Positions 2,168-55,290 of a stretch of DNA of 64,000 nt are shown here, one piece after another (position 1 is the first letter of the stretch; each line of letters begins with the position of its first letter). A program made the translations under genes and the position numbers. The notes beneath the pieces were generated by a model. That model saw only the letters and a list, made by a program, of their open reading frames with translations, was not told where the DNA came from and made no database searches. Origin of the DNA: a bacterium. GTDB taxonomy: Bacteria; Auribacterota; UBA6266. The stretch spans positions 1,094,133-1,158,132 of the forward strand of contig JALOBK010000001.1 of NCBI GenBank assembly GCA_023228325.1, read 5' to 3'.

Positions 2168-2199
2168 CAGTTTCCTGTTGCCGGAAATGAAAATGATAA

Positions 2200-5143: not shown

Positions 5144-5232
5144 TTTTCGGGCGATGGGATTTACGCTATCGGCCGCCTGGCGGCAGGACCGATAGCAGAT
5201 AAGTGTATTCTGACGCTTAAGCGGGAGGTGAT

Positions 5233-5868: not shown

Positions 5869-6007
5869 AATATATTTACAAAAAGAAAAGTTTTTGTTTA
5901 AATGTTAACCAGATATTTTCAATAGGTTGACATTTAAAGGCTGATTCTCTGCCGCGGATCATACCCCGTCGGGAGACCGTTGCGGGACAGAAAAGAGTTT
6001 TTCCGGT

Positions 6008-6739
6008 ATGGACAAAGATAAATCCTTTTATAAAACAGGCGCCGATTTTAAAAACGGCGGGAAACCCTTTTCCCTGAAAGGGTTTACGCTTATTGAACTG
6101 CTTGTGGTTATGGCCGTAGTGTCTCTGCTTATTTCTTTTATCGCGCCGGCGCTTTCAAAAGCAAGGAACCATGCCCAGTTGTCGGTATGCATGTCCAACC
6201 TCCACCAGTTATATCTGGCTTTTTCCATGTATTTAAACGATTATGATGAAACATTTCCCGTCAACGGAGATCCTTATCTCTGGATGGGCCGGAATTGGAG
6301 AGAAGTTATTTCTCCCTACCTGTTAACCACGGTTGATTCGGAACGTCCGGATGTCCTTTTTTGCCCGGGAGATAAAGTCGCGAAGGAAAAGTGGGAGGGG
6401 ACATCATACTCTTATTCATGCGCGTTTTACCACAGCCCGTCCCAGATAAACTCAATGTCTACGGAAGACACATATAGTAATGCGTCTCTGAGATGTTATC
6501 CCCAGAAGCTGGCCGCAGTAAGGTTTCCGGAAAATAAAATACTGCTCGGGGAATGGCTCAGCAACCATTATCCGGTTGAAGATGATAATGGATGGTGGTG
6601 CTGGAGCGGTTACAGAAATTTTCTGTTTGTATCGGGGCGGATTAAGTATTTAAAAGCTGAAGACATTATTCCGGCCGGAGACCTGCTTCCGAACCCGAAC
6701 CTGACCGTTGACGGCATCAGCGGCAGGGATACACCTTAA
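6008..6739 (+). CDS. Prepilin-type N-terminal cleavage/methylation domain protein (PVC-type pseudopilin-like)
   Basis: [29 protein letters not shown]; C-terminal NFLFVSG is a degenerate H-X9-DG. Confidence 0.85.
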   Translation: MDKDKSFYKTGADFKNGGKPFSLKGFTLIELLVVMAVVSLLISFIAPALSKARNHAQLSVCMSNLHQLYLAFSMYLNDYDETFPVNGDPYLWMGRNWREVISPYLLTTVDSERPDVLFCPGDKVAKEKWEGTSYSYSCAFYHSPSQINSMSTEDTYSNASLRCYPQKLAAVRFPENKILLGEWLSNHYPVEDDNGWWCWSGYRNFLFVSGRIKYLKAEDIIPAGDLLPNPNLTVDGISGRDTP

Positions 6740-29759: not shown

Positions 29760-32700
29760 ATGCTTTCTCGTGAAACAATAGAGATTTTCCCTTCCCCTCT
29801 CGCCGTTTCGGAATATATCAGGAGGATGGGAAAAGAAATCTACTTTAACCATACCTTCTATACATTCGGAAAGATCCTGCTTAATCTTGCGGCAGAGCTT
29901 CTTGAGGAGCGCTTTATAACTGACTTTGAAAAAGAGATAATCCTCAAGAGGATCTGCTCCGGTTATTTCAAAACCCGGAAAAAAAATTATTTTTATCCTG
30001 TTTTTTCAAAGCCCGGCTTCATAAAGGATTTGAAAAAAAGCGTTAAAACGCTTAAAAAGGCCGGAGTCACGCCCGAAATACTTAAAAAACACATAGGCAA
30101 CAGCAAAAGGGAAAAACTTTCCCTGAAAAGGCTAACGGATTTTTACAATATTTATTCTGAATATTGCAGTTCCTGCCGTGATTATGACGATATGGGATGG
30201 CTGGTGATAGATGCCCTGGGGAAAATGGCGGACATGGCACCTTTTTTGAGGGGTATAAAGAAGGTGGTTGTGCGCCCGAGGTATCAGCTCACAAACGTGC
30301 AATTGAAACTGCTCGAAATTTTTGCCGATAAAGGAATAAAAGTTTCCGTGTATTTCCCCTGCGATGAAAGCAATGCGGCGTTTGAAGCGGGTATATTTCC
30401 ATGCAGGTGCTTAAAACAGATGGATTCGGGCAATATCAGGGTTGATAACACTGTTTCGGGCAGCGCTAGGCAGCCTTCCGATTTGGCGTTTGTCCAGAAA
30501 AACCTTTTCAGGGCGGTGAATAATGAAGCAAAAGCGACAGACGGTTCAATCAGCGTAATTGAAGCCGCGGACAGGAATTCGGAAGTAAGAGAAATAGCCC
30601 TCCGCATAAAGAAATATCTTTGCGGCGACGAATATTTGAAACCTTCTGATATTGTCGTGATAGCGAAAAAAATATCGCTCTATGACGACTACATAAGACA
30701 ACATTTTAACAGAGCTAAGATACCATATTATTTCAGGCGCGGGAGACAGCTGCAGCGCGCCAACTTCTACAAGGATTTAATGCTGGTGTTGTCAATGGCC
30801 GAAGAATATTTTCCCAGGGAAAATATTGCCAGGATAATCGCGGCGCCGTATTTTACCGATATAGGGATAGACAAAGATGTTGCCGGACTTATCCTTTGCC
30901 TTTGCGGATATTTGTCGGCGGACAATAAACCCGTCGACGGGTGTTTAAACTGGCTTGCCGGGAAAGGAGGGGAAACAAAAGATTTTATAAACAGCGGGAT
31001 TGATATTCAGGATGTGAAAACATTGAATGAATTTCTTTGCGGGCTTATCCGGGATATTTCGTTTGAAGCTGAACGGACAGCAAAGGATTTTTCAAAATGG
31101 TTAAGAAATTTTATAAGCCGTTACTATATCAGAAATATGATTGAGGATGAAGTATCCGCGGTGTGCGGACTGCTGGATAAGATAGACGCCTGCCCGGATA
31201 ATATCATGGGGTCGTCCCTTGTGAGTGCCGCCCGGTTTAAGGAAATGATAGAAAGTCTGGCCGAAAGAGAAGTCATACATGAAAAAAACAACCTGAACGC
31301 TGTAAAAATATTGACGCCTTTTGATACGGACGGCATGAATTTTAAAATAGGCGTTTTTTGCGGTATGGCAGAAGGCGAGTTCCCGTCCCGGAAAACAGAA
31401 GGCCTTATACTTAAAGACGCTGATATAGAAGCACTGAACCGCATACTGGACGAAAAAGGAATGCTGCCGGTTCAAAAATCTGCAGATGAAGAAATTACAG
31501 ACAGAAATATTTTTTACAGAAGTTTTCTGAATATTTCGGACAAATGCATATTCACAGTCCCGTTTACTGAAGAGACCCGGGAAGACAGAAAAAAATCCGT
31601 ATTTCTCGAAGAAATAGAAATGATGTTTTTATCAGAGAAGGACGGTAAAATGGTTTCGGCGCTGGAGGTAAAAAAAATCCCGCCTTCCTCTGTGATAAGT
31701 GAGCCGGATGATGCCGCATCCAGAACAGACCTGCTGGTTTCCATCGCAAAAAAAAGCAGGGGGAGGAAACTTCTTTTACAGCCCGGCGGGCTGCAGCGGG
31801 AGCTGGAGCAGAATGACAGTGTGTTTATGAGAAATCCTAATGTCATTGCAGCGGGTGATGCTAAAAATTACAGGGGTTTTTATTCTTCCGAAGAGATCCG
31901 CCGTTTTTTGTCGGATAAATTTTTTCAGGACGGGGCATTTTCGTTTAACGCAACCGCGCTGGAAGCGTTTCTAAGATGCCCGTTCAGATATTTTATGCAG
32001 TCGCTCATGAAAATGAGAGATTTGCCGAGGCCGGAACTCTATATTGATGTTATGGATGAAGGGGCCATTATCCATGAAGTGCTGGAAAATTTCTGCAAAG
32101 AGAGAAAAGGGAAGGGAGGAGAAAGGCTTTTATTGGATATTGCCGGCGGAATTTTTAATTCATATGAGCAGAACAATCTGACGGGCAGGAAGGAATTGTG
32201 GTCGGTGAAGAAAGAAGGGATGACCGAAATCCTCAGGAACTTTCTGAAACTTGAAGAAAAATCCCCGATAGGGCCCGGGAAAACGGAATTTCTCAGGGCT
32301 GAATTCCCGTTCAAGAAATTCGTAACCGGTATACGCGGCGAAAAGATAGCGCTGAACGGATATATAGACAGAATAGATATCTCAAAAACAGGCATAGTTT
32401 ATGTGGTCGACTATAAAACCAGCAGGCAGGTCAGAAGCGAAGAAGATTTTCGCGAAGGGTATCTGGCTCAGGCCGCTCTTTATAAACTGGTCCTTTCAGA
32501 AAAAACCGCGCAGAAAAATCTGGGCATAAAAAGCCCGGCTGAAATCAGGGCATGTTATTTCCTTTTGAAAGCCGACCCCTTTGATGAAAAAGCGGAATTC
32601 TTTTCGGAAATTGCCGTATCGGGCGACTGGGAGGAAATCCTTTTTGAAAAAATAATGAGATTCAAAAAAGCTGTTATCAACATGGAATTTCCCGCGCGCC

Positions 32701-32783
32701 CTTTTGACAGGCAGGTTGATTGCAGGAACTGCGAGTTCCCTTATTTTTGCAGGATAGCCGAAGATTGGGGCGCGAAAACATGA
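29760..32783 (+). CDS. addB: AddB-like helicase/nuclease subunit (PD-(D/E)XK, Fe-S)
   Basis: NATALEAFLRCPF, GYIDRID..VVDYKT, CRNCEFPYFC; ATGA overlap with addA. Confidence 0.85.
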   Translation: MLSRETIEIFPSPLAVSEYIRRMGKEIYFNHTFYTFGKILLNLAAELLEERFITDFEKEIILKRICSGYFKTRKKNYFYPVFSKPGFIKDLKKSVKTLKKAGVTPEILKKHIGNSKREKLSLKRLTDFYNIYSEYCSSCRDYDDMGWLVIDALGKMADMAPFLRGIKKVVVRPRYQLTNVQLKLLEIFADKGIKVSVYFPCDESNAAFEAGIFPCRCLKQMDSGNIRVDNTVSGSARQPSDLAFVQKNLFRAVNNEAKATDGSISVIEAADRNSEVREIALRIKKYLCGDEYLKPSDIVVIAKKISLYDDYIRQHFNRAKIPYYFRRGRQLQRANFYKDLMLVLSMAEEYFPRENIARIIAAPYFTDIGIDKDVAGLILCLCGYLSADNKPVDGCLNWLAGKGGETKDFINSGIDIQDVKTLNEFLCGLIRDISFEAERTAKDFSKWLRNFISRYYIRNMIEDEVSAVCGLLDKIDACPDNIMGSSLVSAARFKEMIESLAEREVIHEKNNLNAVKILTPFDTDGMNFKIGVFCGMAEGEFPSRKTEGLILKDADIEALNRILDEKGMLPVQKSADEEITDRNIFYRSFLNISDKCIFTVPFTEETREDRKKSVFLEEIEMMFLSEKDGKMVSALEVKKIPPSSVISEPDDAASRTDLLVSIAKKSRGRKLLLQPGGLQRELEQNDSVFMRNPNVIAAGDAKNYRGFYSSEEIRRFLSDKFFQDGAFSFNATALEAFLRCPFRYFMQSLMKMRDLPRPELYIDVMDEGAIIHEVLENFCKERKGKGGERLLLDIAGGIFNSYEQNNLTGRKELWSVKKEGMTEILRNFLKLEEKSPIGPGKTEFLRAEFPFKKFVTGIRGEKIALNGYIDRIDISKTGIVYVVDYKTSRQVRSEEDFREGYLAQAALYKLVLSEKTAQKNLGIKSPAEIRACYFLLKADPFDEKAEFFSEIAVSGDWEEILFEKIMRFKKAVINMEFPARPFDRQVDCRNCEFPYFCRIAEDWGAKT

Positions 32784-35716
32784 AATATAACTGGGAAAAA
32801 CAGATAGAAGATGTTCTGAACACCAAAACAAAAGCCGCGATTTCCGCCTCCGCGGGAACCGGAAAGACAACTTTTGCGATGAATAAGGTAATACGGTTGA
32901 TTGAAGAAGGACGGAATGATAAAGAGAGAGAGGAAATAGCGGCTTCCATATGCTGCATAACATTTACGAAAAAAGCTGCGGGAGATTTTAAGGGAAGAGC
33001 AAAAGAAATACTTCTGGAAACGGCAAAAGGATCGGATTTTCGCGAAAGGTTTGAGTATGTAAGAGTAATAGACGAGATTCAGATATCAACAATACATTCA
33101 TTTGCGGTAAAAATATTAAGAGAATTCTGCTCCTATGCGGATATAGACCCGGAACCTGAAATAATAGATGAGGACAAGCGGAAAATTCTGAGAAAAGCGT
33201 TAAAACAGGCGGTGGTTTCTAGGATTGATGCCGGCGAAGATACGGTTCTTAACAGGATTCTTGCCGTCCTGCCTCTCGAAAAGAAAGGGTTTCAGGGCGG
33301 TTTTGAGGATTATGTTTTTGATATTGTAAATAATTTCAGGGCCGCGGATATTCCCGGAAAGGTGAAAAACTTTGTTTCGAAATCCGTTAAAAACGAGAAA
33401 GATGAAATAAAACAGATTTCTTTATGTCTTGCGGGGATTGCGGATGAGGTCTTTGAAAGGTATGAAAAACTTAAACAAAACAGGATTACATATGATGAAA
33501 TCCTTATCAAAGCCAGGAATTTATTGAGGGATCATAAAGACGTAAGACAGGAGATAAAAAAAAGATATAAATTGATAATACTCGACGAGGCCCAGGATAC
33601 GGACAATATCCAGATGGAGTTTATCATGTGGCTTTCCGAGAGAGATGAGACCCTTGCCGGAAACATCGCCGAAATCCAGCTGTCCGACAAAATAATCGTC
33701 GTAGGTGATTTCAAACAGTCTATTTACGGCTGGAGAAATGCGGATCCCGCGGTATTCGGCAAAATCCGCGAACAAATAGGGCTTAAGAGGTCTTTAAGGG
33801 AGAACAGGAGAAGCCAGAAGGGAATACTGGATTATATAAATAATCTTTCGATGCTTATTATAGCCGACTTCGATAAAACCGGAGACCTTATTAAAGCGAA
33901 GAGAAAAGAAACGCATGATTCCGGAAATGTTTACAGGCTGTTTAACAGGGAAGGGTTTGAAACTGCCGAAGCGCAGAGAAAAAAGGAAGCGGAATACCTG
34001 AGCGTGCTTATTAAGCGGATGGCTGAGGAAGGCACTTTAAACGGGAAGGAAGTGAAAGTATTCAGGGACGGAAAAGAAGAGAACCCCCTTTATTCGGATA
34101 TCGCGATTTTATTCCGCAGACTGACCAAAGTCGGTATCTATGAAAAATGCCTGCAGGAGCGCGGCATCCCTTATTTTGTTCTGGGTAATTCCGGGTTCCT
34201 GTCAAGATTTGAGGTGCGTGACTCACTGAATTTTTTGAATATTATGTCCAATGCGCGGGATGAGCTTGCATATGCGAGCCTTTTGAGGTCCTTCGCATCA
34301 ACAGCGGATGATAACCGGATAGTCTGCGGGAAACTGGAAAATAAAATACTGAAACCCGAAAAGTTTTTGAATGGAGGGAGAAAAAACGCTGTTCAAAAAT
34401 TAGACAGCGTTTTGCTGGATGTAAGGCAGAAAAAAAGTACCCGCGCCCCATCCGAGTTATTGACCGAGTTTCTGGAGAGGGTTTCATATTTCAGCGCTCT
34501 GGCAAAACTTGCCGACGGCGATATAAGAATTGCCAACGTTGAAAAGCTTATAGAAAAAATACGCGCCATGGAATCCTCGGGTTACGACTCTCTGGAAGAC
34601 ATAACTCAGCGGTTTATCGATGATATAAGTTTTGAGTCGGATGAGGGGCTCGCTTCGGTGTCCGGAGAAGGCGATAATTCGGTAAGGCTGATGACGGTTC
34701 ACAGGTCCAAAGGGCTGCAGTTCCCCATTGTAATCATTCCCGATACATCGTCTGGAAGATTTATCGGGGATAAGGTGATTATAAGACATGACGGGGCTTT
34801 TGCGTTCAAAATGAATAAATACTGGGAAACTTCCAATTATGAAAAAGAAAAAAACAGGACAAAACATGAAAGAAGCGAAGAAGAAAAAAGGCTGTTGTAT
34901 GTCGCCGTTACGCGGGCCAGAGATGTTTTAATTGTTTCCTGCCTGAATAAAAAGCCGGAGTCCAGAGAAAAAGGGAAAAATCTTAACACATGGTTTGATT
35001 GCCTTAAGAATGTTTCTCCGGCGCGGGATATTTATATCGAAGACGGATGTGAAAGTCCGGCAGAAACAGCTCAGGAATCCCCCCCTGCCGTTGCAGAACT
35101 GGATGTTAAGCAAAACATGGAATTTGCCGATGCCGATATAGATGTGTTGAACCCGCCTGTTGAAAAAATAAGCGTCTCGCGGTATCTTGATAAGGAAGGA
35201 TATATGTTTTCCAGGGATATCATGGAACAGGAAGAGGATATATCTTCGGATATTGAAGACGAGCCCCGCGCGGATAAAAAGGGAAATATCGGAACAGCTA
35301 TTCATTACACTCTGGAACACATGGATTCAAAAAAGGATATCATCAGACTGCTTAAGCATAAATTACCTGAGGCGGAGGTCCTTCAAATTGCCCCGGAGGT
35401 TGAAAGATTTGTCGAAACAGACGAGTACAGGGAAATGGGATCTGCCGATGAGATATACAGGGAATTGCCGTTTGTCCTCAGGGAAGGGCAATATGAAATC
35501 AACGGGAGGATCGATTGTGTTTACAGGAAAAACAACAGGATAGTAATAGTTGATTTTAAATGGTCCGACTACAGAGGAGAAAGATACAACAGACAGCTTG
35601 AAATATATAAAAAAGCGTTTGAAAAACATTCAAGCGATATGAAGGTAGAGACACGCATTCTTTATATAAAGAAAGGAGGACAGAATGGAGAAAAGAGCTG
35701 TCATCGTTCTGGCTGA
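32780..35716 (+). CDS. addA: AddA-like UvrD helicase/nuclease
   Basis: SASAGTGKT, LDEAQD, VGDFKQSIYGWR, TVHRSKGLQF, LLYVAVTRA, GRID..IVDFK; ATG 32780. Confidence 0.88.
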   Translation: MKYNWEKQIEDVLNTKTKAAISASAGTGKTTFAMNKVIRLIEEGRNDKEREEIAASICCITFTKKAAGDFKGRAKEILLETAKGSDFRERFEYVRVIDEIQISTIHSFAVKILREFCSYADIDPEPEIIDEDKRKILRKALKQAVVSRIDAGEDTVLNRILAVLPLEKKGFQGGFEDYVFDIVNNFRAADIPGKVKNFVSKSVKNEKDEIKQISLCLAGIADEVFERYEKLKQNRITYDEILIKARNLLRDHKDVRQEIKKRYKLIILDEAQDTDNIQMEFIMWLSERDETLAGNIAEIQLSDKIIVVGDFKQSIYGWRNADPAVFGKIREQIGLKRSLRENRRSQKGILDYINNLSMLIIADFDKTGDLIKAKRKETHDSGNVYRLFNREGFETAEAQRKKEAEYLSVLIKRMAEEGTLNGKEVKVFRDGKEENPLYSDIAILFRRLTKVGIYEKCLQERGIPYFVLGNSGFLSRFEVRDSLNFLNIMSNARDELAYASLLRSFASTADDNRIVCGKLENKILKPEKFLNGGRKNAVQKLDSVLLDVRQKKSTRAPSELLTEFLERVSYFSALAKLADGDIRIANVEKLIEKIRAMESSGYDSLEDITQRFIDDISFESDEGLASVSGEGDNSVRLMTVHRSKGLQFPIVIIPDTSSGRFIGDKVIIRHDGAFAFKMNKYWETSNYEKEKNRTKHERSEEEKRLLYVAVTRARDVLIVSCLNKKPESREKGKNLNTWFDCLKNVSPARDIYIEDGCESPAETAQESPPAVAELDVKQNMEFADADIDVLNPPVEKISVSRYLDKEGYMFSRDIMEQEEDISSDIEDEPRADKKGNIGTAIHYTLEHMDSKKDIIRLLKHKLPEAEVLQIAPEVERFVETDEYREMGSADEIYRELPFVLREGQYEINGRIDCVYRKNNRIVIVDFKWSDYRGERYNRQLEIYKKAFEKHSSDMKVETRILYIKKGGQNGEKSCHRSG

Positions 35717-37970: not shown

Positions 37971-38594
37971 ATGAAACAGTTGTTAGCAGTGTTTTTTTTA
38001 ACAGTAGTTATCAGCTTTTTCCCGGCAATCGCGCATGCAAATCTTTTGTCGAATGCCGGATTTGAGAACGCTGAACAGGGCGCATGGTGGGGTCCCTGGG
38101 GAAATAGCCAGCATGCAGGGACTTATGGAGATACAGGTACCGGAATAGGAGGTTCAAAATCCGTTAAGTTCACCGCTAATGCCGCTGCAGGAACCGGCGA
38201 TGATTATTTTATGTATGATAATACGCTTGTTGCTGTTACGGCGGGACAGACATATTACGGGACGATATTTGCTAAAACCAATGCGCTTATCAATGAAGAA
38301 GTGACGATAAAAATAGACTGGTTCAATACAGGAAGCTGGGTTGGAACAGCAGGAGCATCAACTCCTCTGAGCGGGACAAATGACTGGACAGCGCTCAATA
38401 TAAGCGGAGCGGCGCCCGGTAATGCGACTCATGCTTCTCTTGCATTTTTTATCAACCAGACCGTTGAAGGCGGCACGGGAACAGCATATTTCGATAATGC
38501 TTACCTTGACGCGACTCCGGTGCCTGAACCGGGAACAATAGTTTTACTCGCGGGAGGTTTACTCGGACTTATTGTTTTTTCGAGAAAAAAATGA
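37971..38594 (+). CDS. PEP-CTERM protein with CBM-like domain
   Basis: Signal peptide, NLLSNAGFE...YFDNA, C-terminal VPEPGT + TM + RKK. Confidence 0.9.
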   Translation: MKQLLAVFFLTVVISFFPAIAHANLLSNAGFENAEQGAWWGPWGNSQHAGTYGDTGTGIGGSKSVKFTANAAAGTGDDYFMYDNTLVAVTAGQTYYGTIFAKTNALINEEVTIKIDWFNTGSWVGTAGASTPLSGTNDWTALNISGAAPGNATHASLAFFINQTVEGGTGTAYFDNAYLDATPVPEPGTIVLLAGGLLGLIVFSRKK

Positions 38595-38617
38595 CGAGAT
38601 AGACTGATATTTGTTTG

Positions 38618-38689
38618 AAACAGCCGTTCTTATAAAAGGGTTTTCCCTCTTTCCCCCACAAGAAAGTTCTAAGGGCGGCTGTTTTTTTT
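38618..38689 (+). terminator. Intrinsic terminator-like stem with large structured loop
   Basis: AAACAGCCGTTCTTA / TAAGGGCGGCTGTTT stem (two G-U pairs) followed by a T run. Confidence 0.7.
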
Positions 38690-38713
38690 AGAAACGGGAA
38701 AGGATCCGGCATA

Positions 38714-39370
38714 ATGGGTAATAATATGGTTGACCGGAACTCAAAAAGACTAATGGAACGAATTGCCCTAAAGAGTTTTACCCTGATTGAGCTTCTTGTG
38801 GTTATTGCGATAATTTCCGTTCTGGCGGGTTTTTTGGTCCCCGCTTTTCAGAAGGGCCGGCTGAAAGCCAAACAGGCCGTATGTTACAGCAATCTCAAGC
38901 AGATAGGTATCGCGCTTCAGATGTATCTTATAGAACAGGATGAAAAATTTCCCTATCTCGTGTGCAACAATGTCCATCTCTGGAACGCGTTTTCGGATAT
39001 TATAAGAAGGTTTGATTCTTATATAGACGGTATGGATGTTTACAGGTGCCCGGCAAATCAAAACACACTCAATGCGGGCTGGAGAGACGATGTTTTTGAC
39101 GACCAGGACAGCAGCGGGAATGTTATACTTGATTATGAAATCAACGGTTATTCTTCGGGAGGAAAAACATTAAAGGACCTTAAGAATAAGGATTTCAGTA
39201 TTTATGCATATATGTATGATTATCCATACAATTCATGGGATGAGAGGCCTCACGGCAACGGCATCAACTGCCTTTATGTGGATGGGCATGTAACCTGGCT
39301 GCGCGACAGGGAAATGAATCTGGCGGGCGCGGAGAAGGACAAATTCTACGGGCGCGGGTGGGTTGAATGA
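38714..39370 (+). CDS. Prepilin-type N-terminal / H-X9-DG domain protein
   Basis: [44 protein letters not shown]. Confidence 0.9.
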
Positions 39371-41245: not shown

Positions 41246-41298
41246 AGGCAATACCTTCCGATAATCTTTTTCCGTTTTATTGGAAAAATCCTTCCGAG

Positions 41299-41336
41299 AT
41301 GATATAATTTTAAATTAAATTTTAATTTTATATCAT
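41299..41336 (+). promoter_or_regulatory. Extended -10 promoter overlapped by dyad symmetry, upstream of the glucan operon
   Basis: TGA-TATAAT at 41300-41308; inverted repeat ATGATATAA(41299-41307)/TTATATCAT(41328-41336). Confidence 0.55.
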
Positions 41337-41340
41337 AAGG

Positions 41341-44300
41341 TTGATAATGAGCATATTGCGTTTTGTCCGGCAGGCAACCCAAAAGGTGTTTTTTATTTAT
41401 GTCTTTTTCACTGTCTGTCTGCCGGTATCTTTTTCGGAAGACGGCGGGATACAGGATGAAATCGCTTTTCTTGAAAAAGTTGCCCTCGGCAGCGGACCCC
41501 ATGTCATAGACGGCATAGACTATAACGACCTTTCCATACAGGATGCGATAAAAAGGCTTTATGAAACAGACAGGGAAATCGCCATACAGAAATTTATAAT
41601 AAAGCAGGCGGAATTAGAGATTAAAAAGACAAAAGTATCCGCGTTTTTCCCGACAATTACCGCTGTGGCCGGAATAAGCGCTCCCGTAGACCTTTTTTAT
41701 GAAATAAGCAACGCGAGAGGCGCTTATCTGGGCCAGCGCCTGAACATAGCGTATAAATTCGACTCGGACCTTCTTGACCGTATAAATGCGGTGGAAAGAA
41801 ACAGGGAAACTGAATTAACGGCATTAATTTCCACATTTAAAGACCGATTTATAACACTTATGGAAACATACCTTAACCTCTCGCTGTCGCAGAAGGAACT
41901 GGTTGTTTGCGTTGAAAGTTATAAAGAAGCCAAAAGCCAGCTTGAAAAAATGAGGAAAGACCCTAAATATACACGGTTGGACATTTTAAAAGCTGAATAC
42001 AATATAACCCCTTTTTTTAAAGAGGCTCTTGCCGCCTGCAAAAGATACAAGGATGTGCAGAGGGATATTAAAATTATCCTGGGCTTTGACGGATATGAAA
42101 CCCTTATAATAAAAGTTTCCGATTTTCCCGAGACCCTTGAAGAAGCCAGGAACATGGTTTTAGATGAGCACCTGCGTCAGCCTGAATGCAGCATCGATGT
42201 CCTGAAAAAACAATATGAACTCGCGAAAGCCGAAACAAAATTAGATTACCGCCCTCTGCTTGAGCTTATCGCGGCGTCTACGGGAACGATGGAACAGGAT
42301 ACGATCAAAGATACACCCGCGACTTACAGAGCCACGTCTTCGCTGGTATTGAATCTTTTCGTGACCGATTTCGGTTATTCCGACAGCTGTAAAAAGTTCA
42401 GCAGGGTTAACGCCGATATAGCCGAAGCGAATGTCCGGGTGGAAAATGATGCTATAGAGAGGGATAATTTCGAGAGAAACAGCAAAATCAGGGAATTTTC
42501 CACCGCATTCGAGGCAATTACCGAATTTATTGCGGGAACAGAGGAAATCGTTGCGTTAATGAAGGAAAGGATAGAGCTTCCAATAGAAGAATTGCTTAAA
42601 AAGAATGAGCAGCTTTTGACCGCAAGACTGCTTTTGCGGCAGCTGCTGAGAGATTACACTTATAATTACATGATGATTTCCAGGGAGAACCCGGAAGAAA
42701 CACTTTCTTCTCCCCCATTCCAAAACATGACATTCGAAGATATCCTTGACCTGGCGGAAAGTAATAAGACGCCGGAAGAACTTGCAATGGAAAAAAATGT
42801 TGAACTGCAGATGATTAACCTTAAAATGGCCAGATGTTTCAACAACCCCGTTCTGAAAGGCGGGGTAGCCGTTGAAAACGAATCTTATGCCACCGGGGAG
42901 AAAACCAATACCACAAAAGCGTTTATAAGCGTCGAAGGCAAATTTTTTGATATAGGCCAGCAATATATGATAGAGGAGGCAAAAGCCAACCTTGAAGCGG
43001 CAAAAGATAGATTACAGATTTACAGGAACAGGAAGTATATTGAGCTGATAAACAACTTTGTCAAGATTATCCAATATAAAAGACAGACGGAATTCATTCA
43101 GAAAATCATGGGATTGAAAGAATCCGTTATTGATGATATGAGTGAAGATAAAAGCGGAGAATACCCCAAATATGAAGCAATAAATATCAAACCCCTTGTA
43201 TTGGAACAGCTCGAAGCGAACATTAACCTTGCAGGGGCGGAATGCAATCTGTTCATCTGTGAATATAACCTGAAGAAATTAGCCGGTATACCGCTAAGCG
43301 AGAAGATATCGCTTCAGGAAGAGCTGTTATTCGACGGGGAGAGCGGGACGGAGAAATTTCTTGATACAATCAGAAAAAAAATACTTCCTTTCTACGATTC
43401 CGGAGCTGGTATAAGCGCGGCATTGAATACCGTGAACGCGTTTAAGGCGGCGGAGATAAAGCAAACCGCATTCCGGGGTTTTAGCTGTCAGTTCCTTACA
43501 GAGTTCAGGGGAGAGGACCTCAGGGGTTTTAGAAATCCCGACATGATAACCGCTTTTATCTGTTCGGTCCCCTTCGGAGGCAATGATATAAGGAACATAG
43601 AAAAGTCCGGGCAGGAGAAAAACAGGTTTGATGCGGAGCTTGAATATGCGGAGGCGCTTAAAGAACTTGATGAAATGAGAACAACTGTCGGAATCAGATC
43701 CAGAGAAGATAAACTGTCCCTGAGAAGGATGAAACTTGACAGGCTCAACCTTGAAGCCCAGCACAGGCTGACAGAGAAGCTTGTGGAACTCGGGACAAAA
43801 CAGAAGAGAGAACAGATGGAATCCGAAATGAGGCTTGTCGCGCTTGACATTCAGATGGATACGGCTCTTCAGGATTATATTTACAACGAGTCTTTAAACG
43901 GGTTTCTTTCCGAAATGGACGAGAATATTTTTCAAGACAGAGGGACTTTCATAATTTCCGGGTTGCCGAACGCGCTTGCCCTTGCCATGGAAACGAGCGA
44001 TGAATTGAAAAGCCTGAAAAACAAGCTTGGCTCTGAAGAAGATATAATGAATTATATAAATTCGTTTTATTTCTCCGGAAGCGTTAAAACCAATTACGTG
44101 GAAGAAAAGATAAAAGGGGAGGCCGGGAAGGAAACCAAAATAGAGTCGTTTGTTTTTATCGGGACAATAGATGCCGAAGTCAATTTCATCAGCAGCCTGA
44201 TGAAAAAAGAACAGGAAATGAAAGTCGAAATGGGCAAGCTTGAAGTCGAAAGGGCAAAATTTGACATCGCGCAGGATGTAATAGGAGCCTATACCGATTA

Positions 44301-45312
44301 TCTTAAATCAATGGCGGTCTTATCCGCGGTCAATGAAAGATATTATAAGGAAAAAGAAACACTCGACAGCATAGAGGAACAGATGAAGTCCGGGATAAAA
44401 ACACGGATGGAGTATTTAAAACAGGAACAGGTCATAAGCCTGATTCAGGCGAAACTCCTTGATTCCAAAGAAACAGCCGACAGCAATAAAAAACACCTTG
44501 AAATCGCGGTGGGTTCTCTCGACCCCAGATTTTCGGTAATGAACCTTGAGATATTCGATAAAGACAGAAATGTCATTATACCGACAGATCCCGAAATGAT
44601 AAGATTGAAACTTGACCGGGAAATTGACGCTGTCAGGGAATCCCTTGTCGGCCCGCTTATTATAACCGAATCGAAATACGGGGAATTTTCGGAAGAAGCA
44701 TCGAAGTACGCGACCAGGGCGGCAGCCAAAAGAATAAGGTCGCTGTTAATAAGCGTTAATTATTCTTATCTCACCAATTCGCTTTCCGAGATAGGCGATT
44801 TTGAGGAAGAAGTGCTGGACCTGCCTTTGCTTACCGAGGAATCAGTCCAGGAGTTTAAGGAATTTGTGAATGCAAGCGCGTCCCTGGTGCTTTATGACCC
44901 GGGAACGGGGTTGTCCGGCAAGATTGAGTCCGTTGAAGAAAAAATCACGGCTTTGAAAGCGCAGGATGATATCATCGAAAGGGTACAGGGCGCTCAGATG
45001 CTGCTTGATACTTATGATACGGCTTTACGGGATTTTAATTATGCGGTAAAAAACCTTTCCGGGATTGAGCACGAAATGGAGAACAGGTTTGACGACATAA
45101 GGAGAACGGGGAAAATGGACCTTACGGAAGAGCTGAAAGTGCTCGGCATGCTTCTCCAGATGAAGATAGAGAGAATAGAGTCTTTCTATGGGATAGTCGC
45201 GGCATCCAACCGGATTGATCAATACCTCAGGAAATATGTTAATAAGGGCTTAGACGAGATATTGCAAACGGCGGAACCAAAAAAAAATGAAGATATTGCA
45301 TTTGCCGAGTGA
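41341..45312 (+). CDS. Large TolC/OEP-family outer membrane protein, apparently three tandem TolC-sized units
   Basis: Signal peptide; OEP-like starts at about aa 63, 463 and 874; amphipathic helices alternating with short beta strands; start may be ATG 41347. Confidence 0.65.
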   Translation: MIMSILRFVRQATQKVFFIYVFFTVCLPVSFSEDGGIQDEIAFLEKVALGSGPHVIDGIDYNDLSIQDAIKRLYETDREIAIQKFIIKQAELEIKKTKVSAFFPTITAVAGISAPVDLFYEISNARGAYLGQRLNIAYKFDSDLLDRINAVERNRETELTALISTFKDRFITLMETYLNLSLSQKELVVCVESYKEAKSQLEKMRKDPKYTRLDILKAEYNITPFFKEALAACKRYKDVQRDIKIILGFDGYETLIIKVSDFPETLEEARNMVLDEHLRQPECSIDVLKKQYELAKAETKLDYRPLLELIAASTGTMEQDTIKDTPATYRATSSLVLNLFVTDFGYSDSCKKFSRVNADIAEANVRVENDAIERDNFERNSKIREFSTAFEAITEFIAGTEEIVALMKERIELPIEELLKKNEQLLTARLLLRQLLRDYTYNYMMISRENPEETLSSPPFQNMTFEDILDLAESNKTPEELAMEKNVELQMINLKMARCFNNPVLKGGVAVENESYATGEKTNTTKAFISVEGKFFDIGQQYMIEEAKANLEAAKDRLQIYRNRKYIELINNFVKIIQYKRQTEFIQKIMGLKESVIDDMSEDKSGEYPKYEAINIKPLVLEQLEANINLAGAECNLFICEYNLKKLAGIPLSEKISLQEELLFDGESGTEKFLDTIRKKILPFYDSGAGISAALNTVNAFKAAEIKQTAFRGFSCQFLTEFRGEDLRGFRNPDMITAFICSVPFGGNDIRNIEKSGQEKNRFDAELEYAEALKELDEMRTTVGIRSREDKLSLRRMKLDRLNLEAQHRLTEKLVELGTKQKREQMESEMRLVALDIQMDTALQDYIYNESLNGFLSEMDENIFQDRGTFIISGLPNALALAMETSDELKSLKNKLGSEEDIMNYINSFYFSGSVKTNYVEEKIKGEAGKETKIESFVFIGTIDAEVNFISSLMKKEQEMKVEMGKLEVERAKFDIAQDVIGAYTDYLKSMAVLSAVNERYYKEKETLDSIEEQMKSGIKTRMEYLKQEQVISLIQAKLLDSKETADSNKKHLEIAVGSLDPRFSVMNLEIFDKDRNVIIPTDPEMIRLKLDREIDAVRESLVGPLIITESKYGEFSEEASKYATRAAAKRIRSLLISVNYSYLTNSLSEIGDFEEEVLDLPLLTEESVQEFKEFVNASASLVLYDPGTGLSGKIESVEEKITALKAQDDIIERVQGAQMLLDTYDTALRDFNYAVKNLSGIEHEMENRFDDIRRTGKMDLTEELKVLGMLLQMKIERIESFYGIVAASNRIDQYLRKYVNKGLDEILQTAEPKKNEDIAFAE

Positions 45313-45324: not shown

Positions 45325-48300
45325 ATGAAAAGTAAAAAAATAAGTTATCTTTTTTCAGGTGTTTTATTTGTCCTGCTTACGGCGGCTTTTTGCGATTTAT
45401 ATGTTTTTGCCACCGAGGCCCGCAGGAAAACCGCAGTCAGCAAATGTGATATTATCGCTAATCCGCTTGCCGATGTGACGCAGAGGGATGAAATGTTAAG
45501 GCCGGGGGAAATAACTTCGTTTCTTCTTGAGTGCCGGTATCCCGTTACAGGTCTTATCCCTACTGAAATATCAACTGAAGGGGTAGCCAATATACACAGA
45601 GGCCAATCTTCAACGTACGCCTCCGCCGTTGCCCAGCAGATATTGCTCATGAGCGGGAAGACCGAAGAAGCGGAAAAGATGGCCGAGACAATGAGAAGCC
45701 TCGAAGAAAAAAGGAATATCCCCAATACGGTTGACCTGGTAAGCGGCTTGAGTTCCGATTTTTACACTACCGCAGGCCCCAATGCTTTTTGGGGGATCGG
45801 TTTTTTGAAAGAATACCATTTTACAAAAGAGCAGAAATGGCTTGATGCGGCCGTTAAAATCGCGGATTTTCTCATATCCCTGCAGAGTATTGACGGAGGA
45901 ATAAGAAAAGATCCCAATCCTTTGAATGCCGAGTACCGCGTGAAATCCACTGAAGAAAATATGGACTGTTATGCTTTCTTTAAGATGCTTTTCAGTGTTA
46001 CGGGGGATAATAAATATGAAAGGACTGCCGGAAAAATTCTTCAGTGGCTCGCGCAAAGCGGTGTTTACAACAGGAAACAGGGTTTTTTTTCCATAGGCAC
46101 TTTCAACAATGTTGTTGACCCGACATACGGGCTTGATGTCAACGCGCTGGCTATTATTATACTTGGGCCCGAAATGCTTAATGCCGGGGAAGGAAAGGTT
46201 GTATTCGAAGGCCGGGATACAGCCGGAAAAGTCGTTGAAAGTTTTGAAAAAGCGCTTGTTACCGTTGATTATATGCATCCTGACGGAACGGAAATAAAAG
46301 GGGTTACGGGTTTTGATTTCACCGATAAATTAGGGAGAGGAGGCAGGCAGGAAATAATAACCCCCGAGTTCAGTTCACAGACAGCGCTCGCGTATATGGT
46401 GATGGCTGTTTATGAATTGAACAGGAATAATACTCAGAAAGCCGTATCTTATTCGCATAAGGCAAAGGGGATACTTGAAAATCTTTCCATAATGGCTGCC
46501 CGGAGAGAAGAAACAGCGTCTCTTCCTTATGCGACTCTTCCGAGGATAAGGAGATTCGGTTTTGATAACTGGTTTACTCCGTCGGCGGAAGCGAATATTT
46601 CTTCCTGCTGGGTTGCTTTCCCTCTTGCCGGATACAACCCGTTTGAATTGGACGGGTTTAAAATAAGGGATTCCATCGAGAGAATTGCGCCATGGGTTGT
46701 TGATTTTGGAAAGATAAAGGCATCTCTGAATATGTTCCCGCAGTTTATCGAGACTAACCCGCCGCCGGAGATTGCCCTTTCGGCCTACAGGGAAGCGGTC
46801 CGCGAAGACGATGTGCCTGAAAGGCCGTTTATATATTACAAAATACTTTATGAAAAGTCGCTTATGGATTATCTTCTCGCGAAATCAAGGCTTGAATCGG
46901 TGCTGATGACGAGTTACAGCGCATGGGTTGACGGTTTGATAGATATATCGGAAGCGGGGTATGATGCGCTGGAAATCACCCGGGACGGGAAGCTGGTAAA
47001 GAAAAAAACATATGAGATTTCTCCCGACATCAGGAAAATACTTGAGGAAGAATACCTTTATTTCGATGAATTGACCGGCAGCCAGTGGATGAAAGCCATT
47101 AAATATAACCTGGACATTGATTATTCAAAAGGCACCAATTACGCTTTCGAAGTGGACGGGGATTATAATATTGTAAGGCAGTTCAGGACAGAACGGGATG
47201 TCCCGCAGTCAAACAGGGAAGATTTAAAAGATAATACGGTGGAATTCAAGTCGGTACGGGGGCTGCCTGAAGGGCATATTATCATGAGATATTGCACCGC
47301 CGTGGAACTCGATGAAAACAACAGGGTGGTGGATGCCTATGAAAGCGTCGACGACCTGCCCGCTATGGTGGCGAAAGTGCCGATAAACGAGCAGACGTAT
47401 ATAAGATTCAATAATGCGGAGGGGCAGGAAAGAAGAAAATTGCTTGAATCCGGGATAATCCCTTTTTTCGACGGAACACTTGCCATGCGCGAAGAAGGCA
47501 ATTTTTACTATACACAAGTTCTTGCCCTTGACACGTCCCGCCGCCTGTTTTCAAGGACTTATTCAAGAGACAGGGGCACCGATATTGTCGTTGGGACAAG
47601 GTTGCTGCTGGCTGACTGGGAAGTTGACAAGAGAACAAAAATCAATTCGGTGAAATATGAAAAAGGCCTTGTTGACGGTATGGCTATGACGATTAAACGC
47701 CCGTTGATAGGGGAAAAACCCCTTAAGACAGAACCCTTATGGATATTGCTCGGGAAAGATGCCCGTGACGAGGAAATACAGAACCTGAAAAATATCCAGG
47801 CGGGTTTGATTGAGAAAATCGACAGGGAAGCGGACGCGCAGGTCAGGCAGTCTTTTATCAAGGAGTTTGACCGTCTTAATACCGAGATGTTCTGGCTTGA
47901 CGAGAAAGGATATCTTCATACCATAAGCCATGGGTTAAAGGGAGCCGAAAAACTTTTAAAAGAAATAGAGAAGGCGAAAATCAAAGCGGATGCGTCTCCA
48001 AAAGAATACTTTTCCGTTTTAGGGAGAGATCTCGGCGGAAGAGATTACCGTGATGTGTACGGCCTTGTATGGATAGGCGTAAGGGATAAGAAAAGCGGGA
48101 ATATGCTGCAGGTCGAAACTTATGATATAGCGGGAAACCTGAAGTTCATTCTTGCGGGGAATATCCATATTGACCCTCTTACCAAGAATGTTATCGCGGA
48201 GACCAGAACGGATATTTTATACGATGAAGATTCCGGTCAGATGATAGGAAGCCATACATATGCGATAGATATAGAGGGTAACTGGGTTACGGATATTTCG

Positions 48301-50310
48301 GAAAGTATTTATAAGGGCCGGACTCCGGATGGGGAAAATTATGTAATGGAGGAAAGGATATTTGTTAAAGATATATACGGGAAAACAGTTTTCCGCGACG
48401 GCTTGCCGGCATATGAGACGATAATAAACTATTACAATATGGAAGGCGAATTGGAAGCGGGAATCTCGGGTGATGTCATAGCGGTTATGGGTTACGAGGA
48501 CGGAAGCGAACTGTTAAGGGATGTGTATATTGACCCTCTTATAAAAGTGAATATGGATAATATCGAAGACCTTTCGGAAATGCTAAAAGGCAGGCAGTGG
48601 GTTTACCGTTTCAGGTCTACAGGCGAAAAACCTACGTTAAGGGAAGCCATTGAAAAGAATCTTATATATATGGATCCTGAAGAAAGGCGGAAGGCGGCAG
48701 ACATTATTCTGGTGCTGATTAACAGTCAGGCAAAGGAAGAGATAAACGATACAATGGTGCTTGAAGAAAGGGAAGTTATAAATAACCTTCAGGGGGTTTA
48801 TGGCGAGGAAGCCGTATCTTTTGTAGTGTATTACATGCCGGGCGATGCCATGGGAAGAGAAAGACTTAAGGTAACCGGCGGCAAAATCGAGATCCCGTTT
48901 GAATGGATAAGCGGTAAACCTGTAGCATCCAGGTCTCTTTCATTTAATTTAAGCGGGCAGTTGCTGGCTGTAAGGGAGATTCTTGACCCTGAGCGCGCGG
49001 ATAGTGTTTTCAATAGCTCAGACCTGGAAAACATGGGTAGTCTGGGTATAACTTCAGATACGCTTCTTCCGGGTTCTGTTGAAATAAACTACAGGATTGT
49101 GACAGACGCGTCGGGCAACCCTGTTCACACCGATACAATATCTCATATAAATGTAAGCTATCTTATGCCCGAAGATATTTTAAGCAGGGAGCTTGCGGTG
49201 ATTAAGTTCAATGTCATAGGAAAACATAAGGGGCTGGATATAAAGAAAAATGTCCGGAGAGTGCGCAATTGGCTCGGGCAGGAAATGCTTATCGAAAAAT
49301 GGGATGACGAAAAAAACCGCGAAAAAGAAAAAACTATAGGGAAGAGAAAAGAAACCATAATCAAGGAATGGTATAACGAATCAAAAAATTTAGATGAAAT
49401 GAGAGCAGCTCTTATAAAAGAATTTGCCGGCGGGGCTTTACGGGCCGCGGATGTTGAAAAGGGAAAATGGCCAAAGACATTTGATGAGCTTGAAAACATT
49501 ATAAAAAAAGGAACAATAAAAGAGAAAAATTTACATATAAGCGTTGCCAAAATAAAGAGTTCTCTTGAAAATATGAAAGTGGCGCCTCCGGGCGTATTAC
49601 CCGGATTGCACATAATAGAAGATGACGGTTCCCTGAAGGAGATAAAATATTTTGCCGGCATGTTTGAATATCCCAGGGATGTGTTCAGCCATAAAGGCAT
49701 AGCCGTGCCATATGAAGAAGAGATAAAACCGTTCGGCCTGCCTGAAGGCCCGCCGATACTTGGTTTAAAATATTTCATTCTTAATTCAGACGATTTTATT
49801 TATGACGTCCACACGCTGAACGGCCAGCTGATTATCAGGGCGAGGCCATATATCCAGATAAGGCTTGTAAATATGTTCCCGGTTGAAAGCGGGGATGAGC
49901 AGATAGAATATTATGACCCTTTTGTCCCGTATCCTTATCTGAGGCCGATAAAGATTGAGAGAGATTTCGAATCGGGCAGGGAGCCGACCGGAGAGAAGCC
50001 GGGTATGCTTACCATAGCCGTGTTTCCTGATAACTCCACGGTATATCTTGATAACGGATGGAAAGCCCAGACATTTATGGAACGGAGGCCGCTTGATATC
50101 GACCACTGGATAAAGTCGGTGAATTATTATGATGAAGATGAAGAACTTAAATATAAGAAGGAGCACATAGAGAGCAAATCAATATATACTTTAAAACGGG
50201 TCGGGTGGAAAATCCCCCTGGCTTTAATATCCGCGCTTGCATTGTTAATATGGTTTCTGGGATTCCGGGAACATTTAAGGATGCTGAAGAAACGGGATGA
50301 AAGATTGTGA
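45325..50310 (+). CDS. Giant periplasmic protein: (alpha/alpha)6 glycosidase-like domain, YD-like repeats, C-terminal TM anchor
   Basis: Signal peptide; STEENMDCYA, LPY, GYNPF shared with 39437; multiple xDxxG motifs; terminal TM + basic tail. Confidence 0.55.
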   Translation: MKSKKISYLFSGVLFVLLTAAFCDLYVFATEARRKTAVSKCDIIANPLADVTQRDEMLRPGEITSFLLECRYPVTGLIPTEISTEGVANIHRGQSSTYASAVAQQILLMSGKTEEAEKMAETMRSLEEKRNIPNTVDLVSGLSSDFYTTAGPNAFWGIGFLKEYHFTKEQKWLDAAVKIADFLISLQSIDGGIRKDPNPLNAEYRVKSTEENMDCYAFFKMLFSVTGDNKYERTAGKILQWLAQSGVYNRKQGFFSIGTFNNVVDPTYGLDVNALAIIILGPEMLNAGEGKVVFEGRDTAGKVVESFEKALVTVDYMHPDGTEIKGVTGFDFTDKLGRGGRQEIITPEFSSQTALAYMVMAVYELNRNNTQKAVSYSHKAKGILENLSIMAARREETASLPYATLPRIRRFGFDNWFTPSAEANISSCWVAFPLAGYNPFELDGFKIRDSIERIAPWVVDFGKIKASLNMFPQFIETNPPPEIALSAYREAVREDDVPERPFIYYKILYEKSLMDYLLAKSRLESVLMTSYSAWVDGLIDISEAGYDALEITRDGKLVKKKTYEISPDIRKILEEEYLYFDELTGSQWMKAIKYNLDIDYSKGTNYAFEVDGDYNIVRQFRTERDVPQSNREDLKDNTVEFKSVRGLPEGHIIMRYCTAVELDENNRVVDAYESVDDLPAMVAKVPINEQTYIRFNNAEGQERRKLLESGIIPFFDGTLAMREEGNFYYTQVLALDTSRRLFSRTYSRDRGTDIVVGTRLLLADWEVDKRTKINSVKYEKGLVDGMAMTIKRPLIGEKPLKTEPLWILLGKDARDEEIQNLKNIQAGLIEKIDREADAQVRQSFIKEFDRLNTEMFWLDEKGYLHTISHGLKGAEKLLKEIEKAKIKADASPKEYFSVLGRDLGGRDYRDVYGLVWIGVRDKKSGNMLQVETYDIAGNLKFILAGNIHIDPLTKNVIAETRTDILYDEDSGQMIGSHTYAIDIEGNWVTDISESIYKGRTPDGENYVMEERIFVKDIYGKTVFRDGLPAYETIINYYNMEGELEAGISGDVIAVMGYEDGSELLRDVYIDPLIKVNMDNIEDLSEMLKGRQWVYRFRSTGEKPTLREAIEKNLIYMDPEERRKAADIILVLINSQAKEEINDTMVLEEREVINNLQGVYGEEAVSFVVYYMPGDAMGRERLKVTGGKIEIPFEWISGKPVASRSLSFNLSGQLLAVREILDPERADSVFNSSDLENMGSLGITSDTLLPGSVEINYRIVTDASGNPVHTDTISHINVSYLMPEDILSRELAVIKFNVIGKHKGLDIKKNVRRVRNWLGQEMLIEKWDDEKNREKEKTIGKRKETIIKEWYNESKNLDEMRAALIKEFAGGALRAADVEKGKWPKTFDELENIIKKGTIKEKNLHISVAKIKSSLENMKVAPPGVLPGLHIIEDDGSLKEIKYFAGMFEYPRDVFSHKGIAVPYEEEIKPFGLPEGPPILGLKYFILNSDDFIYDVHTLNGQLIIRARPYIQIRLVNMFPVESGDEQIEYYDPFVPYPYLRPIKIERDFESGREPTGEKPGMLTIAVFPDNSTVYLDNGWKAQTFMERRPLDIDHWIKSVNYYDEDEELKYKKEHIESKSIYTLKRVGWKIPLALISALALLIWFLGFREHLRMLKKRDERL

Positions 50311-54714: not shown

Positions 54715-55290
54715 ATGAGAGTTGTATTTTTCTTTATTTGTTTGTTTTGCATTATTAATGTGTGTGAATCTGATGTAATAAATACAAAATATTATAGATT
54801 TATTTTGCCTGACAATCTTGATATTGTATATTCAAAACCAGATATTATTACCAAAGAGGAAGAAGAGACAGGCGCTTTTATAAAAGATAGCAAAGAGGGT
54901 TTTATAGATATTGTTTGGCGTAGCGGCAGAGATGAGATTGCTTTTAGATTAGAATCTATGCCGGCAATGAAAGCTTCCCTGGAAGATTTAAAAAGCGTTG
55001 TTCAGTTAATTTATGATAAAGATAAAGATCCCAATATTTGTGAAATTGACTTATTCGAGTTGAAAGATATTAATCTTGGAGTTTTTAAAGGTTTCGAAAT
55101 AAAAAAAGTAGGAAAACCGATTGGTTTAAATCAGCCAAAACATGCATCCGTTGATTTTTGTATTACAGATGGAGAGCTTGTTTGGATGGGATCTCTTTAT
55201 CGGATTGGGAAACCTTTGCTTCCCGGCGGAGGAGATTTGTCCATAGCCAATTTTATATTAGAAAACGCCAGAAGAAAAAGTAAATATTAA
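54715..55290 (+). CDS. Hypothetical exported protein, last gene of operon
   Basis: AAGGAG SD 13 bp after the GT48 stop; signal peptide; visibly AT-rich. Confidence 0.7.
   Translation: MRVVFFFICLFCIINVCESDVINTKYYRFILPDNLDIVYSKPDIITKEEEETGAFIKDSKEGFIDIVWRSGRDEIAFRLESMPAMKASLEDLKSVVQLIYDKDKDPNICEIDLFELKDINLGVFKGFEIKKVGKPIGLNQPKHASVDFCITDGELVWMGSLYRIGKPLLPGGGDLSIANFILENARRKSKY

Follow-up and report, generated by a model that had tools for sequence, protein, structure and literature searches.

A 1661-residue predicted periplasmic protein linked to a GT48-type glucan synthase in Candidatus Auribacterota

The DNA analysed here is a stretch of 64,000 nucleotides (nt) from contig JALOBK010000001.1 of the assembly GCA_023228325.1, referred to as the window. 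It comes from a bacterium of the candidate phylum Auribacterota, whose members are diderm and for which an outer membrane has been drawn (PMC9324843). The window contains a compact unit of three genes, which encode a TolC-type protein with matches to the Pfam family OEP, a protein of 1661 amino acids (aa) that is the subject of this analysis and is referred to as the arm, and a glucan synthase of glycosyltransferase (GT) family GT48. The intergenic gaps in this unit are 12 nt between the OEP gene and the arm and 47 nt between the arm and GT48 (Table 1). According to the list of open reading frames (ORFs) and the translation, the arm is encoded by a 1661-codon ORF opened by an ATG. This start codon is supported by the homologues P0001-P0004, which align with the protein from residue 1. 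A gene-call artefact was excluded because the frame is kept in homologues with 37-94% identity over the full length.

Table 1. Features of the three-gene unit, with their positions in the window and the basis of each assignment.
Feature	Position	Strand	Basis
Promoter-like site (extended -10) preceding the OEP gene	41280..41308	+	consensus match only
OEP (TolC-type) protein, 1323 aa, signal-like N-terminus, presumed outer-membrane channel	41341..45312	+	Pfam OEP
Whole gene of the arm, 1661-aa predicted periplasmic partner of the GT48 synthase	45325..50310	+	ORF, translation, homologues, fused forms
N-terminal signal-like segment, aa 1-30	45325..45414	+	hydropathy peak aa 5-32
Core of the GH76-like toroid match, aa 153-254	45781..46086	+	Pfam PF03663
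Middle region, aa 501-885	46825..47979	+	conserved, mixed alpha/beta (low-confidence model, pLDDT 37.8)
Predicted beta-hairpin block 1, aa 893-1069, 12 strands	48001..48531	+	model, pLDDT about 80-90
Predicted helical insert between hairpin blocks, aa 1083-1135	48571..48729	+	DSSP on model
Predicted beta-hairpin block 2, aa 1147-1224	48763..48996	+	model; PGDxxGRE and FNLSGxL turns
Predicted beta-hairpin block 3, aa 1247-1339	49063..49341	+	model; lower pLDDT, 47-77
Conserved membrane-proximal region, aa 1441-1600	49645..50124	+	conservation profile; low-confidence model only
Predicted C-terminal transmembrane helix, aa 1626-1648	50200..50268	+	hydropathy maximum 2.09
Basic, predicted cytoplasmic tail REHLRMLKKRDERL, 13 residues	50269..50307	+	translation; point where fusion proteins run on into GT48
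GT48 (FKS1/callose-synthase type) glucan synthase, 1447 aa	50358..54701	+	Pfam Glucan_synthase E = 1e-27

A Kyte-Doolittle scan found only two hydrophobic segments in the arm, at aa 5-32 and aa 1626-1649. The first belongs to a signal-like N-terminus with a basic n-region (KSKK), a hydrophobic core and a possible cleavage site between VFA and T, and the second is directly followed by the basic tail REHLRMLKKRDERL. A hydrophobic stretch at the position of the second segment is also present in the fused homologues P0006, P0007 and P0009, in P0004 according to the alignment, and in the locus L009. Based on hydropathy and these fused homologues, the arm is predicted to be exported and held in the inner membrane by a C-terminal transmembrane (TM) helix. 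This agrees with an earlier note on this DNA, in which a periplasmic protein with a C-terminal TM anchor and a basic tail had been described. The signal peptide claimed in the same note was recovered as a signal-like N-terminus, which could act either as a cleaved signal or as an anchor. Conservation extends over the whole length of the protein and peaks in the N-terminal toroid domain and in the membrane-proximal region, which is among the best-conserved stretches of the family with an identity of 0.52-0.58 in a diverse set. No Pfam match was found for the middle region in a search of aa 501-1661 at E <= 10.

The family of the arm is small. A word-indexed search of 5.8 billion clusters returned five proteins of the family, an exhaustive HMMER search of 1.84 billion cluster representatives gave six matches, and a second word-indexed search added one further member (P0010), with a family total of about ten sequences. 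Four proteins were returned by a word-indexed search with the GT48 neighbour. Among the GTDB species genomes, the family was found in three close relatives, namely UBP3/UBA6266, a Candidatus Auribacterota metagenome-assembled genome (MAG) and an unclassified MAG. The family members P0010 (labelled Dehalococcoidales) and P0013 (labelled Spirochaetes) are located on short MAG contigs whose source labels point to unrelated phyla, and these labels may reflect binning errors or horizontal spread.

The in-frame fusion to GT48, as read from the homologous sequences, is the strongest result of the analysis. In P0006 (3131 aa) and P0007 (3065 aa), the entire protein is followed by the TM helix and then by a complete GT48. 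The same junction is present in P0004 (2513 aa), in which the GT48 part stops short and the rest lies in a separate downstream gene, and in the distant fusion P0009 (2299 aa), which is N-terminally truncated and likewise rich in Y-D-x-x-G-like turns. At locus L009 (QNBN01000154.1, labelled Spirochaetes bacterium; 1-4701), the open frame extends to base 1, and the GT48 gene deposited as a 1547-aa protein begins with the C-terminal end of the arm family and the TM helix, i.e. it is the 3' part of a fusion. Since P0004, P0006, P0007, P0009 and L009 share the in-frame junction via the TM helix, five lineages are predicted to encode one polypeptide. In the Auribacterota clade of the window, the split lies 47 nt before GT48 begins, and a linker of roughly 60 residues is lost. 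By this comparison, the gene in the window is the split-off N-terminal half (~1650 residues) of the synthase polypeptide of most related lineages. In the fusions, about 290 non-hydrophobic residues lie between the TM helix and the first TM cluster of GT48. As this stretch corresponds to an N-terminal domain that is located in the cytosol in Fks1 (PMC12715860), the part upstream of the TM helix would be located outside the cytoplasm.

Two details of the fused forms are worth recording. At L001 (6447-15965), the arm and the N-terminal part of GT48 make up the 2513-aa protein, and the C-terminal part of GT48 is a separate gene of 631 aa. This break is either another natural split point or the result of a frameshift or assembly error. 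For the truncated N-terminus of P0009, another glycoside-hydrolase fold was considered and dropped, as Pfam gave only coiled-coil noise.

Upstream of the arm, the OEP gene is part of the conserved arrangement. Full-length homologues of the 1323-aa protein, with 25-37% identity, are encoded immediately before the synthase in L001, L011 and L012, so that an OEP-like gene precedes the synthase in 4/4 contexts with upstream DNA (the window and these three loci). In all four, the order of OEP-like gene, arm and GT48 is kept at 25-51% identity, and the conserved core consists of two genes where arm and GT48 are fused and of three genes in the window. Pfam detects three to five OEP stretches in each of the homologues of the 1323-aa protein (E down to 2e-28); a normal TolC protomer has two. 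The 1323-aa protein itself is roughly three times as long as such a protomer, and six hairpin-like segments with a spacing of about 200 aa can be made out by eye. It may therefore be a single-chain, pseudo-trimeric TolC-like channel. As a self-comparison of the 1323-aa protein with hhalign found no internal repeat, this idea rests on the multiple OEP stretches and on the reading of the sequence. Both partners named in the earlier note, a GT48 synthase and a TolC-type channel, are thereby upheld, the former by the in-frame fusion via the TM helix in the five lineages and the latter by the OEP gene as a conserved upstream neighbour of the arm and synthase.

The GT48 of the window aligns to the GT domain of FKS1, retains the motifs DAN, ED and GKGR, and looks functional from its sequence. 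The GT48 family is usually considered eukaryotic. Its enzymes synthesize plant callose and the beta-1,3-glucan of fungal walls, and in fungi they are the target of echinocandins. In the literature searched, no account was found of bacterial GT48 systems, of the 1661-aa protein or of glucan synthesis in Auribacterota. At L012, a GH16 gene (laminarinase/KRE6-SKN1-like; 3673-4590) is located about 5 kb from the system. Together with genes for a histidine kinase and a response regulator, it falls in the 9 kb that precede the fused synthase P0007, a setting that would fit a beta-1,3/1,6-glucan product. At L009, GT48 is followed by a dCache-HAMP-GGDEF gene (4912-6594), which hints at a control of the synthase by cyclic di-GMP. 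A general Pfam scan of the three window proteins gave no match to PilZ or GGDEF.

For the N-terminal part of the arm, the toroid domain claimed previously is backed by a match to PF03663 (GH76), an (alpha/alpha)6 family and the sole Pfam family matched by the 1661-aa protein. The match at aa 153-254 (E = 2e-7; 31.2-33.6 bits) exceeds the gathering cutoff of 25.9 bits, although it is partial and covers only the profile positions 89-199 of 366. Alpha-1,6-mannanases in the PDB are weak profile matches to the N-terminal domain. Conservation is high over aa 120-440, and the conserved toroid domain probably extends over about aa 60-460. It includes the invariant acidic residues E203, E210, E211, D271, D331, D334, E348 and D414. 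Catalysis in GH76 depends on consecutive carboxylates, Asp124-Asp125 in BcGH76 and Asp143-Glu144 in BT2949, within a D-[DE]-x-x-W motif (PMC4321491). In the arm, an invariant G151-P152-N153 precedes the A-F-W that is aligned to M-W-W of BcGH76; this register is inferred, as the alignment starts downstream of the pair. The invariant Gly151-Pro152 seems to take the place of the consecutive carboxylates, which makes catalysis of the canonical GH76 type doubtful.

The remainder of the protein had been described as an array of degenerate YD/RHS-like repeats, based on ten recurring xDxxG-like motifs. All ten are present, at aa 932, 965, 980, 1015, 1037, 1173, 1207, 1260, 1314 and 1601, although the tenth (YYDEDEEL) lacks the Gly, and such motifs are not enriched over shuffled sequences. 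In aa 501-1661, D..G occurs 8 times compared to 5.8 +/- 2.2 in shuffles and YD..G once compared to 0.3 expected, and there are no copies of Y.YD or of the full YD consensus. RhsA of E. coli K-12, which was used as a positive control for the repeat tests, contains 25 D..G (8.7 expected) and 11 YD..G (0.4 expected). A self-comparison of the family profile with hhalign revealed no internal periodicity, the best alternative alignment having E = 0.018 over 21 columns, whereas RhsA gave E = 1.5e-11 over 337 columns. The profiles PF05593 (RHS_repeat) and TIGR01643 were not matched in the whole protein by Pfam and NCBIfam searches at E <= 0.01; Pfam gave no match of any kind in aa 501-1661 at E <= 10, and a search of aa 886-1340 at E <= 5 did not recover RHS_repeat. 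In RhsA, RHS_repeat is found with E = 1.5e-68 in 13 stretches. Aligning the family to RhsA with hhalign gave a probability of 0.2-0.4%, and when all sequences of the PDB were searched with the family profile (hmmsearch, E <= 10), chains of RHS, Tc or teneurin proteins were absent from the matches. The RHS core domain (PF03527) had no match in Pfam or NCBIfam, and the C-terminus is occupied by the TM helix and the basic tail, or by GT48 in the fusions. The proposed repeats therefore fail every sequence test that the RhsA control passes. By these tests, the arm is outside the RHS/YD family and carries no toxin, and its motif counts are at chance level. A role as a toxin or Rhs effector was ruled out due to the missing RHS core and toxin and the fusion to a synthase.

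Structure prediction gave a more differentiated result. An AlphaFold model of aa 886-1340 (m98348fc70936) was built from a seven-sequence alignment, for which divergent relatives were supplied by the exhaustive HMMER search. It reached a predicted local distance difference test (pLDDT) score of 76.3 and a predicted template modelling score (pTM) of 0.69. Based on DSSP, the model contains about 25 strands, which account for 49% of the residues, while 10% are helical. Three blocks of strands can be distinguished (aa 893-1069, 1147-1224 and 1247-1339), with helical inserts between them, and the spacing of the strands is irregular (8-25 residues). Block 1 has the conserved turns E-x-Y-D-x-x-G-x-L, D-x-x-G-N-W and YY-x-x-E-G, and is the only stretch that HMMER matched in the distant fusion P0009 (profile positions 487-543). 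In block 2, P1172, D1174, R1178, F1207, N1208, L1209 and G1211 are invariant. All nine quoted motifs within aa 886-1340 map to inter-strand loops of the model. Among its tight inter-strand loops, 14/16 contain a Gly and 9/16 a [DN]x0-2G, and several of the turn Gly and Asp residues are invariant among homologues down to 33% identity. As the motifs fall in inter-strand loops and turn residues are conserved, the impression of recurring turn motifs appears to have been structurally right in the model. A single repeat array over aa ~600-1620, as proposed previously, was not found, since helical segments interrupt the strands.

The structural comparison, which the earlier note had suggested as a check, is divided in its outcome. 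In a Foldseek search against the PDB, the top 15 matches are all shells of RHS, Tc-BC and teneurin proteins (E = 3e-8 to 3e-5, probability 0.72-1.0), and the next structural class begins at E = 7e-4. However, these matches have TM-scores of 0.11-0.15 and a root-mean-square deviation (rmsd) of about 20 Å, which is the noise level for a global fold match. Viral MORN-repeat proteins in BFVD match equally well (E = 1e-7 to 1e-5, TMq 0.11-0.15). Because MORN-repeat proteins score as well as they do, the resemblance to RHS shells can be attributed to a generic hairpin-repeat sheet. The prediction for aa 886-1340 is thus a beta-hairpin-repeat sheet of irregular build, in the broad class to which YD and MORN sheets also belong. 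The YD shell of teneurins has roughly 78 strands, and the ~25 modelled strands amount to about a third of this number. An AlphaFold model of aa 501-1661 from five sequences had a pLDDT of 37.8 and was not used for fold assignment. The best Foldseek match of this model (E = 9e-4, probability 0.15) was disregarded. A lipid bridge of the AsmA, TamB or Lpt type was ruled out, as none of these is among the Foldseek or Pfam matches.

Among known systems, BcsB is the closest functional analogue. Like the arm as predicted here, it combines a large periplasmic part with a signal peptide and one TM anchor at the C-terminus, and its gene is located beside that of a processive, membrane-integrated glucan synthase. 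BcsA-BcsB fusions occur in some lineages, and the two families are thus also alike in their synthase fusions. There are nevertheless clear differences. Pfam gave no match to BcsB (PF03170) in the 1661-aa protein, which unlike BcsB has a toroid, hairpin sheets and helical segments and is about twice as large. Moreover, the partner precedes the synthase in both gene and fusion order, unlike in Bcs, and the synthase is a GT48 instead of a GT2. On the level of the whole system, an inner-membrane synthase, an anchored periplasmic partner and a presumed outer-membrane channel encoded in one operon resemble the Bcs, Alg, Pga and Pel systems, but the outer-membrane component is TolC-like, unlike the barrels of the BcsC, AlgE and PgaA type.

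The remaining comparisons concern single parts of the system. The shells of RHS/YD proteins (TcB-TcC, type VI secretion system Rhs effectors and teneurins) and aa 886-1340 as modelled are both hairpin sheets with tight turns containing Gly, some of which are Y-D-x-x-G-like. Unlike these shells, however, aa 886-1340 has no sequence relationship to them, no periodic repeat, no autoprotease, no toxin and no plug, and its strands are interrupted by helices and modelled in too small a number to close a shell. MORN proteins match the model in BFVD just as RHS proteins do in the PDB, but a Pfam MORN match and the regular 23-residue period are missing in aa 886-1340. By Pfam, the N-terminal domain is similar to the GH76 alpha-1,6-mannanases including Dfg5/Dcw1, which have a C-terminal membrane tether and act on a wall made by a GT48 synthase. 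In contrast to these mannanases, the match is partial, the carboxylates are apparently Gly-Pro, and the substrate is presumably beta-glucan and not alpha-mannan. Fungal Fks1 and plant callose synthases belong to the same GT48 family as the partner enzyme, in which the catalytic motifs are kept. Unlike Fks1, the bacterial GT48 carries or pairs with a 1650-residue arm, predicted to be periplasmic, and an outer-membrane partner. In eukaryotic Fks1, which is under the control of Rho1, a large N-terminal module outside the cytoplasm is absent (PMC12715860).

Taken together, the gene most likely encodes a periplasmic, BcsB-like anchored subunit of a three-part trans-envelope apparatus for the synthesis and export of glucan, a reading to which we assign a probability of about 60%. 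The periplasmic part would comprise the GH76-like toroid at its distal end, the mixed alpha/beta region, the three hairpin blocks (aa 893-1339) and the membrane-proximal region. By analogy to the BcsB anchor and BcsA, the TM helix may pack against the membrane domain of GT48; a complex with the synthase is supported indirectly by the covalent fusion in the five lineages. The hairpin sheets and the membrane-proximal region could then take up the nascent beta-glucan at the channel exit, the arm would guide it through the periplasm to the multi-OEP TolC-like outer-membrane protein, and the toroid might bind or trim the polymer. Several points weigh against this reading. The usable model covers only 455 of the ~1125 residues outside the toroid. 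The N-terminal hydrophobic segment might remain uncleaved as a second anchor. Furthermore, TolC-type channels are not known to export polysaccharides.

An alternative is that the 1661-aa protein is mainly an enzyme, whose toroid trims, releases or cross-links the new glucan and whose hairpins serve as a stalk or as carbohydrate-binding modules. The GH76 match above the gathering score and the position of the toroid, with its invariant acidic residues, among the most conserved parts of the protein point in this direction. Synthase-dependent exopolysaccharide systems also usually carry a periplasmic hydrolase or lyase, for which BcsZ, AlgL and PslG as well as the membrane-anchored fungal GH76 proteins Dfg5/Dcw1 are parallels. 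However, the match spans only ~110/366 profile positions, the catalytic carboxylates of GH76 would fall on the invariant G151-P152, and the conserved residues beyond the toroid number more than 1100. We consider a mainly enzymatic role unlikely. An even lower probability is given to a periplasmic module that acts as an activator or gate of the synthase, or as an envelope tether holding the machine to the wall, and is not part of the polymer path. Any essential accessory role would agree with the obligatory linkage to GT48 that the fusions indicate, and BcsB is required for catalysis by BcsA. Nevertheless, no known regulatory or peptidoglycan-binding domain was matched in Pfam or NCBIfam, and the size and whole-length conservation of the arm suggest more than a tether.

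Least probable is a diverged but genuine YD/RHS spiral beta-sheet that closes into a hollow shell for the passage of glucan. It could account for the 15 best Foldseek matches in the PDB being RHS, Tc-BC or teneurin proteins, and for the Y-D-x-x-G-like turn residues, in which P0009 is also rich. The same matches have TM-scores at noise level and an rmsd of ~20 Å and are equalled by MORN proteins. The RHS_repeat, TIGR01643 and RHS core profiles, periodicity and profile similarity to RhsA are all missing, RHS, Tc and teneurin chains are absent from the matches of the PDB profile search (E <= 10), and the ~25 strands are divided into three blocks with helices between them. For these reasons a true YD shell is very unlikely. 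The apparatus for synthesis and export described above can also be extended to a bolder version, which is highly tentative. It could be a 1:1:1 single-file nanomachine of GT48, the 1650-residue arm and a single-chain pseudo-trimeric TolC, with the sheets of the arm forming a YD-like chamber, open or closed, around the growing beta-1,3-glucan. Such a chamber would put this architecture to a non-toxin use and would have evolved independently of the RHS family. The covalent pairing of GT48 with a GH76-like domain in bacteria would then mirror the fungal wall machinery of Fks1 and Dfg5/Dcw1 and could bear on the origin of eukaryotic beta-glucan synthases.

Among the proteins collected here, bacterial GT48 enzymes come with an obligatory arm of ~1650 residues, which is usually fused to them, and with a multi-repeat TolC-like partner. 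Found in a phylum about which little is known, this would be a type of synthase-dependent polysaccharide export that has not been described before, i.e. a known kind of secretion system with unfamiliar parts. Its interest lies mainly in the GT48 fusion and the TolC-like partner and not in the idea of a YD shell. Its small number of genes, two or three, makes it a genetically simple case in which to study the passage of a GT48 product across a double membrane, and the orphan family of about ten sequences is available for structural work. The results also call for caution, as the turn motifs of a generic hairpin sheet and Foldseek E-values can mimic RHS/YD shells.

The flanking 602-aa and 191-aa ORFs are outside the conserved unit. 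The 191-aa ORF (54715-55290, + strand) starts 13 nt after GT48 and has no family match. In the 94%-identical relatives L002-L004, no counterpart of it was called, and a convergent 447-aa gene directly follows GT48. The segment shortly before the glucan cluster (37971-39370, + strand) encodes two proteins, one CBM4/9-like with a PEP-CTERM sorting signal and one of prepilin type with an N-methylation motif, DUF1559 and a C-terminal H-X9-DG motif. PEP-CTERM and DUF1559 prepilin-type features are typical of PVC-group bacteria. Further upstream (29760-35716, + strand), an AddB-like and AddA-like helicase-nuclease pair (PD-(D/E)XK, UvrD) is followed by a DJ-1/PfpI protein. The AddB-like and AddA-like ORFs overlap by 64 nt because the second is listed from an upstream TTG.

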